From a virus (lineage: Duplodnaviria; Caudoviricetes), in the IMG/VR virus record IMGVR_UViG_3300005805_000082, positions 4,826 to 68,825 of that record: a DNA stretch of 64,000 nt; one strand, 5' to 3'. Positions 6,063 through 40,591 of this stretch are shown here, piece after piece; position 1 is the first letter of the stretch, and every line of letters begins with the position of its first letter. A program made the position numbers and the translations under genes. Below the pieces are notes generated by a model that was given only the letters and a program-made list of their open reading frames with translations, was not told the DNA's origin and searched no databases.

Positions 6063-6817
6063 CAACAGTAAACATATCAGTCATTGAAGGCAGGGAGTAC
6101 CTGGTGACCGCCCCGTCAGGAGTAACGGTTCGTTACAATGGTGAGATCGTGACTAGTACTTTCATTGCAGTGTCTAGTGTCAACCAGGTATTACTGATCT
6201 CTCAGAATACTCTGTCTGGGCAGGTGACCATTACCGAAGTGGTTCGGGGGTACTACGATGCATATGACGGACAGGGGGGCGTATGGGCGTTTCAGCCAGG
6301 TGTAGATAAGTGGACAAGTCAGTACAGCTTCAGGCCTGAGTGGATGACCCTAGTAGGTAATAGGTTAGTAACCTTTCGTGACGGCAAGCCATACATCCAT
6401 GACAGTACCACACGCAATACATTCTATGGACAGACCTACGATTCAGTAGTGGCGTTCAATCACAATGAGGCAGGAAACATAACCAAGTCCTACCTGACAG
6501 TTTCTGTTGAGGGTTCTAAGCCAGACCTGGTTCATACAAGGACTGAGGTGCCGAATGTGCAGAGCAGTGATATAAGGCTTAATGAATTTGAAGTAAAGGA
6601 GGGCGTTAATTATGCGCCACTGTGGAGAGACAGACTTAGCCCTAATGTATCAGGAGATGCAGAGCAAAAGCTTAGGAAGGGGGACAGGATCCGTGGAGAG
6701 ATAGGTAAGTTCCAGGTGAACTATTCACTGCCTACTAATCCTAAGGATTTAAAACTTTTCAACATTGGATTCAATATAAGCAGGGGGCACAATACCATCC
6801 CTGAAAATGAAGGATAA
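6056..6817 (+). CDS. Tail muzzle/stabilisation protein, C-terminal part
   Basis: WAF...KWTSQYSF.PEW...RNTFYG..Y.S.V.F segment typical of the C-terminus of such proteins. Confidence 0.55.
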   Translation: MVATVNISVIEGREYLVTAPSGVTVRYNGEIVTSTFIAVSSVNQVLLISQNTLSGQVTITEVVRGYYDAYDGQGGVWAFQPGVDKWTSQYSFRPEWMTLVGNRLVTFRDGKPYIHDSTTRNTFYGQTYDSVVAFNHNEAGNITKSYLTVSVEGSKPDLVHTRTEVPNVQSSDIRLNEFEVKEGVNYAPLWRDRLSPNVSGDAEQKLRKGDRIRGEIGKFQVNYSLPTNPKDLKLFNIGFNISRGHNTIPENEG

Positions 6818-32542: not shown

Positions 32543-33847
32543 TTATTCTCCTAGGAAATCTTTGTAGTAGTTCTTCACCTCGCTATTGAAGTGCTTTTCC
32601 ACGAACGCCACATACCTCTCAAAGGACATGCTCCTATCACTATGGCCGGAGCAGAACTTGATGTGCCTCTCGGAGACCTTGTGGTAGATCATGGTTGTGA
32701 TGGCGGTCTTCCTGAGCATGTGCGGGTGGATGTGCTTGTACATCTCCGCCACCTCAGTAGTCTCTTCACCATATATCCCAAACTTTTTTACCGTGGCAAT
32801 CTGCTGCATCTCAGGGTAGAGGGAGAATACCGTCTTAATATCCCTGTATAAGTTAGAGTAGTGGCCATTCTCCTTGGTGAAGATCCTTCCATACCTAGTT
32901 AGGTTCTCCCGATAGACTTTCTCTAGAAACTTAGGGATGGGGACGTTGGTGTACTCCCTAGTTTTCCCGTTCATCTTGGAAAGGAACATGGCATCTTTGG
33001 TGATGTGCAGGTCATTCACGGACATGTTCATGGCATCGTTGATCCTCATGGTCGTGATCAGGATGGTGGCAGACACCTCCCAGGCATACCTCAGGTTCTC
33101 ATCTAGGGTGTTGTAGGTCTTCTCCTCAGTCAGGAAATGCTTGACAAAAGTTGGCTCTAGTACTACCACGGGATTCGGATCCGCCTTGTAGCTAATGATC
33201 TTGGGCAGCTGCAGGTAGAGGTGTTCCTTCCAGTAGTTGACCATGATGGCGATGTTGTGGAGGTAGACAGTTCGGGTGCTCATGAACATACCCTCATCAA
33301 TCATGTAGTCATCAAATCCCCTAAAGTATTTATTCCATTTATCAGTAATCTCCCGCTTTCTAGATGCCTCATCCCTAGGATTGATTGCCATCTCCATGAG
33401 ATCTAGGCTTCCAGCTATTTCACTAAATGTAGCAAGCCTTTTTACAGCAGATGCGTAAAGCATCAAGGTTTTTTCAGAATAGCTTCTGTTCCCCTTAGCT
33501 TTAATTTCTCCCCGAACCGCCATCTGAACATACCTCTTCAGCATATCCACCAAATCATAGGAATCCGTGTTGACTGGTTCTTCCTCCCTGACTTCTGGAC
33601 TGTATAGGGATTTGATTTTGGAGACATTGCCTCGATAAACCATGAACAGGTCTGTTAGCTTGACCTTCTGTCGGTCTATCTCATTGTTGAGACTGTCTAC
33701 AAGCGGATCTTTTCCTACAAACCTGCCCTTGACAAACTTTAGATAGGTTGGGACTTTTATGCCCGTAGAAAGTCTCAATGAGATGTCTGTTCCGTGTGTA
33801 ATCCTAGCCTGGATTGTGCTGCCTCTCTGTGTGAAAGAAACTGTCAT
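32543..33847 (-). CDS. int: Tyrosine recombinase/integrase
   Basis: TTMRIND (R), HPHMLRKT (HxxR), SGHS, FERY (Y); Bacteroidota-type N-terminal arm-binding region. Confidence 0.92.
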   Translation of the reverse strand: MTVSFTQRGSTIQARITHGTDISLRLSTGIKVPTYLKFVKGRFVGKDPLVDSLNNEIDRQKVKLTDLFMVYRGNVSKIKSLYSPEVREEEPVNTDSYDLVDMLKRYVQMAVRGEIKAKGNRSYSEKTLMLYASAVKRLATFSEIAGSLDLMEMAINPRDEASRKREITDKWNKYFRGFDDYMIDEGMFMSTRTVYLHNIAIMVNYWKEHLYLQLPKIISYKADPNPVVVLEPTFVKHFLTEEKTYNTLDENLRYAWEVSATILITTMRINDAMNMSVNDLHITKDAMFLSKMNGKTREYTNVPIPKFLEKVYRENLTRYGRIFTKENGHYSNLYRDIKTVFSLYPEMQQIATVKKFGIYGEETTEVAEMYKHIHPHMLRKTAITTMIYHKVSERHIKFCSGHSDRSMSFERYVAFVEKHFNSEVKNYYKDFLGE

Positions 33848-35864: not shown

Positions 35865-35884
35865 AATTTTTAAAAATGAGTCAG

Positions 35885-35956
35885 CACCCATGTGGGGACT
35901 CGAACCCCCATCTCTGCTTTTGGAGAGCAGCATTCTTCCAATTGAACTACACGGGC
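35885..35956 (-). tRNA. trnW: tRNA-Trp(CCA)
   Basis: Cloverleaf: GCCCGTG/CATGGGT acceptor, CTGCT-CTCCAAA-AGCAG anticodon arm, GGGG-TTCGAGT-CCCC T arm, G73; CCA end not encoded. Confidence 0.92.
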
Positions 35957-37238: not shown

Positions 37239-37281
37239 GAACTGCCACGGGACTCGAACCCGTGTACAACCATTGCAGTTC
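37239..37281 (-). ncRNA. tRNA minihelix (acceptor stem plus T arm only)
   Basis: GAACTGC-10 nt-CACGGG-TTCGAGT-CCCGTG-GCAGTTC, intergenic. Confidence 0.65.
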
Positions 37282-38239: not shown

Positions 38240-38259
38240 TGTGTGTGTGATTTGTGTGT

Positions 38260-38322
38260 AACCTCTCTGCATTCATAGAGACTTGAGACTCTCACCCCTG
38301 GACGGGCGTGGTTGCATTAGTT
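38260..38322 (-). ncRNA. Twister ribozyme (type P1, with P3)
   Basis: P1 AAC/GUU, UAA, P2 UGCA/UGCA, P3 CAC-CCC/GGG-GUG, P4 AGAG/CUCU with loop UCUCAAGU, pseudoknots AC:GU and CUC:GAG, catalytic GA. Confidence 0.88.
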
Positions 38323-38561
38323 TCTCACCCTTTAGCCTCACGACTACGCTGAAAACCTAAGTGATAGATCAAAGTAGGTTGCGAAGGGCGGGTTACTCGC
38401 ACATCCTAGAGGATGCCATGTCGTTTACTGATTGTGCCTACTCTCAAACGATTTACATCGTGTGCTTTTCTTCGTGTGTGGGTTGCCTGAGGGCAGAGCC
38501 GTTTATCACAAAGGTTCAACTAGACAATGTTGCTTTCACTCCGTATTTTCAAAGAACTGCA
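38323..38561 (-). ncRNA. Structured 5' leader RNA of early transcript with boxA-like element
   Basis: Nested stems; GTTCTTTGAAAA at 38546-38557. Confidence 0.55.
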
Positions 38562-39371: not shown

Positions 39372-39804
39372 GGGTAAAGGGATATGCTTACTAATTGGGT
39401 TCAGTGGTCAACATATATATTGACAGAGGTTTGCATAGGTATTGAGGACGAAAGAGGGAAGGGGTGGCTGCTGTGGTTTAACACTCACACTCACGGAACT
39501 GCCCCGTTCCCCCGCATCCGATTGGCTCATAGGATTCCAATTTCCCGTTCATTGTCACATGGCTCAGTTCCCTTTTCGGTTGTCGGAATGATAAGTTGCT
39601 GTGGCTCAAGCGTTTTCGGTTTCTTGCTCATTTATGCTACATAAATTTTGTGTGACAATTATCGATTTTGGAATGGCCATTTTGACCCCCACCCACTCGC
39701 AAATCCGCAGTTCGCATCGGTCAGTCGCCCAGGGTCTTTCAGTATATTACCCCCACTTCTCGCCCACATACAACCCTCACAAATTTCCACGGCTTTCTGT
39801 GAGC

Positions 39805-40044
39805 TCATTGCGGGCTAACTTGGGCATTATCTGGCGCCTCGCCATTAGCTATCTTAATCCAGGATATCCTCTCTTCTAAGCACCTGTAATAGGTCACCAT
39901 GGCGCCATGCTGTATATTGATCATAGATATCTGGACTGTAGATATTTTAGATAATTGATCGCCATCTACTAATTGCTCTAGCTTTTTAATCTTCTTTAGT
40001 AGCTCATCTTTCTCCTTATGCAGTCTGTCGATGTACGTATCCAT
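39805..40044 (-). CDS. Small helical phage protein resembling the crAss001 gp48 family
   Basis: YIDRL..EKDEL..KI.KL...Q..M..Q..AM..Y...LEERI. Confidence 0.65.
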   Translation of the reverse strand: MDTYIDRLHKEKDELLKKIKKLEQLVDGDQLSKISTVQISMINIQHGAMVTYYRCLEERISWIKIANGEAPDNAQVSPQ

Positions 40045-40105
40045 AGTTTATCTCTTTTGGTTTTGGCGTAGTATATCACCGTTATTCTGGCGTTAATTAA
40101 ACTTG

Positions 40106-40248
40106 TAGAACAGGCAGGACTCGAACCTGCATGGTGGCTTTCCGAGAAGCGTCCTCCGATAACTCACGTTACCCCGACCACTATCCACCGCCTTGTTTAG
40201 CTGCGTCTACCACGACCGGGGACACCCCGATCCTTCCGCCACTGTTCT
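40106..40248 (-). ncRNA. Expanded tRNA-like RNA (Leu-type D arm, no canonical anticodon arm)
   Basis: AGAACAG/CTGTTCT acceptor, TGGCGGAA...TGGTAGACGC D arm with inserted hairpin, GCAGG-TTCGAGT-CCTGC T arm, A73; 143 nt. Confidence 0.7.
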
Positions 40249-40330
40249 ATGTGCCTGTCTTTCCAAGCTGTCAGATAAGTTCTCCAGCTTAATGGACTGG
40301 ATGCCATGTAGGGAGATTATCATTTCTCCG

Positions 40331-40414
40331 CAGAACAGAAGGGAGTCGAACCCTTGTAAGTAGTGCACTACCTATCTACATCGTAGACTGCGGACCACTT
40401 TCCGCAACTGTTCT
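40331..40414 (-). ncRNA. tRNA-like RNA with long variable arm and closed anticodon hairpin
   Basis: AGAACAG/CTGTTCT acceptor, GCGGA/TCCGC D stem, GTCTAC-GAT-GTAGAT, AGGTAG-TGCA-CTACTT, AAGGG-TTCGACT-CCCTT, G73; 84 nt. Confidence 0.7.
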
Positions 40415-40591
40415 ATGTCCCCACTTTCGTGGGCACTTCTGGATTTGCTCCTGAGTCTGCAAACTCACCTGTATAAGACCTACAAATGGGAGTCATACAG
40501 CGAAGATAAACGGCCAACTCTCTAAAATATTTTGTTATCATCAAATGTTCATAAGTTTCAAATCATAATAGATAGCTTCCTAAATTCGCCA

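Follow-up and report, generated by a model that had tools for sequence, protein, structure and literature searches.

Organization of the locus

The window, i.e., the whole 64,000-nt stretch of DNA that was analysed, belongs to a 68.8-kb phage contig from IMG/VR with an estimated completeness of 62%, on which genes for a terminase, portal, primase-helicase, integrase and giant virion proteins were recognized. The closest cultured relatives of its terminase, at identities of 31% or less, are all phages of Bacteroidota, i.e., phages of Flavobacterium, Cellulophaga and Bacteroides as well as one Crassvirales genus. The phage is related to the crAss-like phages and, given that its nearest cultured terminase relatives all infect Bacteroidota, we infer that its host is also a member of this group.

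The RNA described here, which we call element B, is encoded on the minus strand at 40106..40248, within a 1.3-kb gap that divides the leftward from the rightward gene blocks. Read along the minus strand from approximately 40520, this gap contains a conserved leader, a GAAA hairpin, a second tRNA-like RNA (element A), an 82-nt spacer, element B and, beginning 61 nt 3' of the latter, a 79-aa gene related to crAss001_48 (39805..40044, minus strand; Pfam PF21825, E = 2.5e-15). A search of the minus strand for terminator-like sites found none, including between element B and the 79-aa gene. Because the 61-nt interval has no terminator, the two are probably co-transcribed, and the leftward operon headed by element B is probably an early one.

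Other RNA features lie further along the minus strand. The sole canonical tRNA of the window is a tRNA-Trp called by ARAGORN at 35884-35956, and a tyrosine-type integrase gene (32543-33847, minus strand) is located 2 kb from it, which may point to a temperate phage or to an attachment site linked to the tRNA. A match to the type-P1 twister ribozyme at 38259-38323 (47.5 bits, E = 1.3e-8; under the Rfam gathering score of 67.2) lies within the same leftward operon as element B. At 37239-37281, preceded by CCCCCGAACUG, is a mini tRNA-like element made up of an acceptor stem and a T arm only. Such elements are also repeated in seven other loci (L002, L004, L005, L010, L012, L018 and L019); they sit after the stop codons of many leftward genes of this phage group, at up to 6 copies per 20 kb, and are probably punctuation sites for RNase P/Z.

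Anatomy of element B

The initial annotation had described a 143-nt tRNA-Leu-like RNA with an intact acceptor stem, Leu-type D-arm sequence, T arm and A73, a hairpin in the D loop and a branched central domain; each of these parts was found at 40248..40106 on the minus strand. Numbering the RNA from its 5' end (nt n = window coordinate 40249-n, so that nt 1 is 40248 and nt 143 is 40106), the 5' strand of the acceptor stem, AGAACAG (nt 1-7, 40242..40248), forms 7/7 pairs with 40107-40113. Next come U8-G9 and the Leu-type D arm GCGG..GGUAGACGC, including its inserted hairpin (nt 8-46, 40203..40241). The D arm matches the bacterial tRNA-Leu type, and the hairpin, GAUCGGGG-UGU-CCCCGGUC (19 nt, 8 bp; nt 17-35, 40214..40232), enters the D loop between nt 16 and the G18G19 block. 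An A-rich linker of 13 nt, AGCUAAACAAGGC (nt 47-59, 40190..40202), is single-stranded, i.e., unpaired in the consensus fold. It leads into a 57-nt cargo module, termed module X (nt 60-116, 40133..40189), which consists of a stem P (GGUGG/CCACC), an irregular helix and a tip hairpin with a GNRA loop (GUGA; 40158-40173). An A-U dinucleotide (nt 117-118, 40131..40132), the U of which is a candidate U48 and partner of A15 in a Levitt pair, then precedes the T stem. The T arm, GCAGG-UUCGAGU-CCUGC (nt 119-135, 40114..40130), is followed by the acceptor 3' strand CUGUUCU (nt 136-142) and the discriminator A73 (nt 143), which together occupy 40106..40113. The gene does not encode CCA, the bases after A73 being CAA.

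The 72-nt central domain, with its stems GGUGG/CCACC and GGUAAC-GUGA-GUUAUC, had been proposed to replace the anticodon and variable arms. Both arms are indeed replaced, but the stems take the place of only one of them: GGUGG/CCACC occupies the class II variable-arm position, 2 nt 5' of the T stem, while the anticodon-arm position is held by the A-rich linker, which is 8-13 nt long in relatives carrying module X. A 5-bp/7-nt anticodon hairpin was sought throughout the central domain and is absent. Compared with a canonical class II tRNA-Leu, element B thus has the 7-bp acceptor stem, a T loop of the UUCRANY type and A73, but neither the 5-bp/7-nt anticodon arm with U33 and a leucine anticodon nor a D loop of 8-11 nt, given the 19-nt hairpin inserted there.

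As had been anticipated, tRNA finders made no call at this site: ARAGORN and Rfam at its gathering score report only the tRNA-Trp in the window, and Rfam searches at relaxed E-value thresholds gave no family for element B. The folding energy of the single sequence is, on its own, not significant (z = -1.6). With folding energy alone not significant and the finders silent, the case for element B rests on the comparison of homologues.

Structural constraint among homologues with a D-loop hairpin

IMG/VR was scanned with a pattern in which the Leu-type D arm is split by 12-30 unspecified bases, no pairing being demanded within them. Of the 74 loci obtained, approximately 17 are GC-rich coding chance matches, and the remainder represent 45 distinct RNAs. 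The unspecified stretch always folds as a hairpin, although it exists as 29 distinct sequences among the 45 members, and 94% of the hairpin cells are paired as compared with 69% (sd 2.7) in shuffles. Aligned over their acceptor and T stems and the D-loop hairpin, 35 homologues have 97.8% of cells paired, versus 76.4% after shuffling and 35-44% in controls in which the partner was slid by 1-3 columns. Seventeen of the 23 pairs change on both sides, and the observed values were reached by none of 500 shuffles. Within this alignment all 7 acceptor pairs covary (with 19 distinct acceptor sequences in the 45 members), 6 of the 8 D-loop hairpin pairs change on both sides, and 4 of the 5 T-stem pairs covary with 100% of cells paired; since parsing of the 45 members had already selected for pairing in the acceptor and T stems, the D-loop hairpin and stem P statistics alone are free of this bias. 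Covariation in these 35 homologues, and in 15 for stem P (see below), takes the annotated structure beyond what chance would give.

Invariant in the 35 homologues are U8, A14, A15, G18G19, the UAGA/A20a block and T118 (the U two bases 5' of the T stem), together with the stretches from T8 to G17 and from G36 to C46. The T loop reads UUCGANU in 39/45 members and the discriminator is A in 32/45; the next base is C in almost all, and CCA is encoded in none. On this comparative evidence element B is not a decaying tRNA and is best read as a functional RNA gene, its D-loop hairpin being an optional accessory of one subfamily.

The same set of homologues bears on whether the gene is an interrupted tRNA-Leu, with introns or mobile insertions whose removal would give a decoding tRNA. 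Group I introns classically reside in tRNA-Leu genes, and the Rfam tRNA model spans certain relatives with the cargo treated as an insertion (40.9 bits for L128 and 40.1 bits for the Bacteroides phage BS-TP2). Yet a 5-bp/7-nt anticodon arm cannot be obtained in element B by any contiguous deletion, and the D-loop hairpin would need to be removed as well. Across the family, hairpins resembling an anticodon arm occur in 6/45 members versus 2.9 expected from shuffles, i.e., without enrichment, and the cargoes of the D-hairpin members, at 33-138 nt, are too short for group I/II introns; nor was there a match to an intron or ribozyme. We therefore regard this explanation as highly improbable. These observations bear out the earlier proposal that the RNA is unable to decode, and excision to a normal tRNA, which had been named as the result that would overturn it, finds no basis in the sequence. 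A tRNA bearing a group I/II intron or an HDV-like/theta ribozyme was likewise considered and rejected, there being no Rfam match at E values up to 10 and no anticodon arm that could be rebuilt.

The surroundings of the homologues were also surveyed. Eleven D-hairpin members are followed at a short distance by a gene for a MazG-like all-alpha NTP pyrophosphohydrolase (L066:3458-3886, L104:1054-1506, L044:4030-4425 and eight more); a homologue was sought in the window and not found. When ORFs within 4 kb of 111 sites were clustered in search of a conserved partner protein, only lineage-specific neighbours emerged besides the MazG-like one. Over-long 'tRNA' matches (121-137 nt, 35-39 bits) were observed at L044:3617-3753, L048:2376-2496 and L091:10520-10641; as these adjoin family members, tandem arrays of tRNA-like RNAs are common.

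Conservation of module X

Scanning IMG/VR with two core blocks of module X yielded 70 loci, approximately 45 of them non-coding, and 15 representative RNAs from unrelated phage backbones were aligned. All 15 carry module X within a Leu-type acceptor/D/T body. RNAs of this type mostly have no D-loop hairpin but share the same D arm, and several lie within phage tRNA clusters. Stem P, which encloses the module, shows two-sided changes at 4 of its 5 pairs across the 15 RNAs. Each lineage has its own tip-hairpin sequence, with the pairing kept. The core, GAUAGUGGUCGGG ... CGGAGGACGCU ... GGAA.GC, forms a purine-rich irregular helix and is invariant, an invariance partly imposed by the search pattern except at ACGCU and GGAA.GC, which the pattern did not specify. 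Irregular helices of invariant sequence typically serve as sites at which a conserved protein or RNA partner binds, and the conservation pattern of module X suggests that it, too, may bind such a partner. In L077 the cargo X of the window is found on another acceptor stem, with compensatory changes in both stems.

Module X matched no family, intron or ribozyme in Rfam at E values up to 10. In 185,579 representative prokaryote genomes its pattern gave 5 matches only, all of them chance occurrences in coding sequence (acetyltransferase-like). A pseudoknot pairing the 10-nt internal loop of module X with the A-rich linker was considered and set aside, inspection by eye having revealed no consistent complementarity across lineages. 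We also noted an Rfam freshwater-1 RNA (79 bits) at L077:6380-6441 on the minus strand, in the same tRNA cluster as the closest homologue of element B.

Family members in cultured phages

A covariance search of phage genomes, as the initial annotation had proposed, extended the family to cultured phages. The family covariance model, R1, scores element B at 102.4 bits (E = 6e-24), element B being one of its training sequences. It matches an unannotated gap between two genes of the cultured Bacteroides phage BS-TP2 (19551-19658; 55.7 bits), the full length of T5 RNA1 (33.7 bits, E = 6e-6) and positions 6647-6756 (plus strand) of the Bacillus phage SPP1 (X97918; 33 bits), which are unannotated as RNA. 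BS-TP2 grows on B. salyersiae BG8 and SPP1 on B. subtilis. Element A scores 27.8 bits (E = 2e-4), and T4 rnaC gives a weak and partial match (21.6 bits). As the T4 tRNA-Leu, a true tRNA, scores about as high (31.3 bits), the T5 RNA1 and SPP1 matches signify a Leu-type body in common and not necessarily a common function. R1 recognizes that body, and the absence of an anticodon arm needs to be checked case by case.

No tRNA was called by ARAGORN on SPP1. The SPP1 member overlaps the minus-strand 'gene 10' (6525-6734), for which the record flags a conflict with the conceptual translation, and what has been annotated there as a protein is probably an RNA gene.

Measured against T5 RNA1 and its kind, the present RNAs have the Leu D arm, the G18G19/T-loop contacts and A15-U48, a structured variable insert in place of the anticodon arm, and compensatory changes; they are phage-borne, occurring in IMG/VR loci with no true prokaryote match. 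Within this kind, accumulation as a discrete stable RNA is known from the annotation of T5 RNA1. BLAST comparison of the locus, element B and an X-type relative with 50,697 phage records gave nothing or matches the size of a T arm. Neither the literature nor Rfam, when searched, gave a description of the wider family; a 2026 preprint on bacterial tRNA mimics covers other Rfam motifs. The combination of D-loop hairpin and cargo X is new; phage tRNA-like stable RNAs are an already known, unexplained kind.

The family spans Bacteroidota crAss-related phages through to T5 and SPP1, and the tRNA-like stable RNAs annotated in T4 and T5 can be seen as one aspect of a family that is large, modular and under structural constraint. 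Its genes are missed by tRNA finders and Rfam, and may pass as proteins, as with SPP1 'gene 10'. Because cultured members exist (BS-TP2, SPP1 and T5), a bench test is now possible.

Modularity and turnover of the locus

Among the 45 D-hairpin members, 39 cargo clusters were distinguished on a tRNA body that is nearly constant. An identical acceptor stem, AGTCAGG/CCTGACT, is common to 20 members with differing cargoes; L029 and L045 have the flanks and acceptor of the window but unrelated cargo; and cargo X is found on bodies with and without the D-loop hairpin. Chassis and cargo thus behave as separate, exchangeable modules, which lends support to the scaffold role that had been suggested at the outset.

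The locus as a whole also turns over quickly. The closest relative, L014 (92% terminase identity), has approximately 200 nt of other sequence where the window has a 700-nt cassette, and its family member sits 4 kb away from the cassette site (49 bits); in L003 the positional homologue is 93 nt long and its acceptor stem is identical. The region exchanged (39799-40496, versus L014:5321-5523 and L003:3557-4038) corresponds to the first ~700 nt after the conserved early leader; close relatives hold unrelated non-coding modules there, between flanks that are approximately 80% identical. A motif, AAUUGCCUUGAGAUAGUAUCGA, is common to the L003 and L014 regions.

A pseudo-tRNA decaying from a duplicated phage tRNA-Leu gene might be expected to vary in this way among close relatives, and to be missing from the site in some, as the cassette is in L014. 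We nonetheless find such decay scarcely credible, since every helix shows compensatory changes, the nucleotides of the tertiary contacts are invariant, and a single design is maintained in over 55 distinct homologues from diverse phages. The unconstrained decay of homologues that would have spoken against a functional RNA is accordingly not what the family displays.

Leucine identity

The published identity set of E. coli LeuRS comprises A73, A15-U48, G18G19, A20a, U8-A14 and the T-loop contacts, and E. coli tRNA-Leu variants without anticodon and variable arms are still leucylated (PMC9976931). Every one of these elements is present in element B. It is therefore plausible, as judged from its nucleotides, that element B can be charged with leucine and yet not decode. 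The D-loop hairpin lies in a region whose geometry LeuRS reads, so that charging may have been lost in the hairpin subfamily. Across the family acceptor sequences drift freely with Leu identity kept, a pattern that fits a LeuRS that does not read acceptor sequence. The retention of the nucleotides read by LeuRS, with the anticodon discarded, suggests that the machinery of translation or tRNA maturation is used here for something other than decoding.

Conservation of the Leu D arm, elbow and A73 amid drifting acceptor sequences could also mean that the tRNA body is itself the effector, i.e., a decoy or sponge for a factor that recognizes the upper half of tRNA-Leu (for example LeuRS, EF-Tu, RNase P, an enzyme of tRNA modification or a defence nuclease directed at tRNAs), with the cargo doing no more than abolish decoding. 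Counter-defence loci typically lead an early operon and show fast cassette turnover among close relatives, and both features of the present locus are in keeping with this idea. Anticodon nucleases, however, require the anticodon loop, which is missing here, and we know of no tRNA-Leu-specific defence that acts on the upper body. Moreover, deletion of the arm alone would stop decoding, yet the sequence of module X is conserved across unrelated phages. We consider a decoy function unlikely.

Element A, the spacer and possible transcript punctuation

Upstream of element B, at 40331..40414 on the minus strand, element A (84 nt) is likewise tRNA-like but non-canonical, with the acceptor stem of element B and G73. 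It has a long variable arm and an anticodon arm closed by a GAU triloop, and is non-decoding; neither ARAGORN nor Rfam called it. A candidate for upstream structure, RAGATH-12, was rejected, as its match upstream of element A reaches 15.9 bits versus a gathering score of 75 and covers the GAAA hairpin only; a search of the literature on RAGATH-12 found no paper.

The two elements are separated by a conserved 82-nt 'tRNA-trailer' spacer (40249..40330, minus strand) with three covarying hairpins. The terminal one, GCUUG-GAAAGA-CAGGC (40253-40268, minus strand), is followed by ACAU directly before nt 1 of element B. The spacer motif occurs in 18 IMG/VR loci, where it begins directly after a tRNA-like discriminator in 15/16 distinct cases and often ends 3-5 nt ahead of another tRNA or tRNA-like RNA; its terminal hairpin alone also precedes family members in BS-TP2 and the L128 group. 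No match to the 82-nt spacer was found in Rfam. We regard it as a candidate for a new 3'-trailer processing element or ribozyme. An HDV-like/theta ribozyme (PMC10879173) was tried as a model for it and rejected, as the fold fails and the 5' helix is a local hairpin. The GAAAGA hairpin resembles a protein-binding hairpin of the boxB type.

An alternative is that the function of element B lies entirely in cis. Its tRNA shape would then recruit RNase P/RNase Z to cut an early polycistronic transcript, leaving upstream RNAs with a hairpin-protected 3' end and the downstream gene with a short AU-rich leader, and the released RNA would be functionless. Members do sit at gene boundaries, the next start codon being often 15-40 nt downstream (61 nt here); several lineages have a covarying hairpin 3-5 nt upstream of the 5' end; and the same operon harbours the twister ribozyme match and the tRNA minihelices. 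The minihelix in that operon, however, suffices for this purpose at 43 nt, so that an RNA of 143 nt is unneeded. The core and covarying stems of module X, the D-loop hairpin and the LeuRS determinants would all be superfluous for cleavage, and many members lie inside tRNA clusters where there is no gene to release. That punctuation is the sole function thus seems improbable to us, if worth keeping in mind.

A proposed chassis RNA with exchangeable cargo

The constant body, the interchangeable cargo and the invariant irregular helix are, taken together, best accommodated if element B is a stable chassis RNA, processed as a tRNA and carrying an exchangeable structured cargo that acts on a conserved partner; we put this reading at about an even chance. 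Element B would be transcribed as part of the leader of the leftward, probably early operon. RNase P would cleave at nt 1 and the 3' tRNA-processing nuclease after A73, and the CCA-adding enzyme would add CCA to give a stable RNA of approximately 146 nt. Processing of the tRNA type fits the genomic context, in that relatives lie in phage tRNA clusters and the BS-TP2 member between two genes, while in the window no terminator precedes the next gene and the twister match and minihelices punctuate the operon of element B. The tRNA body would serve as a chassis that provides processing, folding and stability and, given the retained LeuRS elements, might also be leucylated and bound by EF-Tu. The working part would be cargo X, held at the variable-arm position and acting in trans.

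A broader proposal, which we offer tentatively and with more doubt than conviction, is that phages may use the Leu-tRNA body as a universal chassis, with the host tRNA machinery (RNase P, the CCA-adding enzyme and perhaps LeuRS and EF-Tu) maturing, protecting and perhaps delivering varied cargo RNAs, each of which would neutralize or hijack a different host factor. If so, such a system would count module X and the D-loop hairpin among its parts, and the early-leader cassettes would be a fast-evolving arsenal of RNAs for host takeover or counter-defence.

Comparison with known systems

The closest counterpart described is T5 RNA1 (AY543070, 30501-30644), annotated as a 'tRNA-like stable RNA with unknown functions'. 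It is phage-encoded, lies among tRNA genes and, at approximately 144 nt, combines a Leu-type D arm (GCCGGAAUUGGUAGACGGG) and a T arm with a large structured insert in place of the anticodon arm. It differs in having no D-loop hairpin, another cargo, two U-U mismatches in its acceptor stem and E. coli as host. The comparison names the kind of RNA without explaining it. The species 1 and 2 RNAs of T4 (rnaC, 139 nt, and rnaD, 119 nt) are similarly small and stable and are encoded in tandem in the tRNA region of a phage, and rnaC has a canonical T arm, but they have no evident Leu-type D arm and no sequence similarity to element B. With class II tRNA-Leu (RF00005) element B shares the acceptor stem, D arm, T arm, A73, A15-U48 and G18G19; unlike it, element B is without an anticodon arm and has a 19-nt hairpin in the D loop and a 57-nt module at the variable-arm place.

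The tRNA-like domain of tmRNA, which is processed and charged like a tRNA (PMC3985003), resembles element B in being a tRNA upper half without an anticodon. In keeping with a miniature RNA of this type, most X-type RNAs have a frame of 3-8 codons that runs through the A-rich linker from the D stem to the conserved UAG of GAUAG, or to UGA UAG, at the start of module X. In tmRNA, however, G3-U70 confers alanine identity, and there are pseudoknots and a conserved tag frame. Element B possesses none of these: it has A3-U70 in place of G3-U70, and its identity elements specify leucine. The putative peptides show no conservation, stem P, which covaries, dictates their 3' codons, and the length of the linker varies by non-multiples of 3. 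tmRNA searches with ARAGORN and Rfam, moreover, matched the T arm only (7.7-13.7 bits versus a gathering score of 47), and we attach very little probability to such a function.

In YrlA and the bacterial Y RNAs, D- and T-arm contacts likewise shape a tRNA mimic that does not decode. YrlA differs in ending in a Ro-binding stem, whereas the ends of element B form an acceptor stem; a TROVE/Ro gene was sought in the phage record and not found, and Rfam gave no Y RNA match. A man-made system also shows a likeness of design. In the engineered tRNA scaffold, the anticodon arm is swapped for an RNA of interest, which the cell then processes and stabilizes. The logic of chassis and cargo is the same and, were the broader proposal above correct, the phage family would be the natural counterpart of this scaffold.
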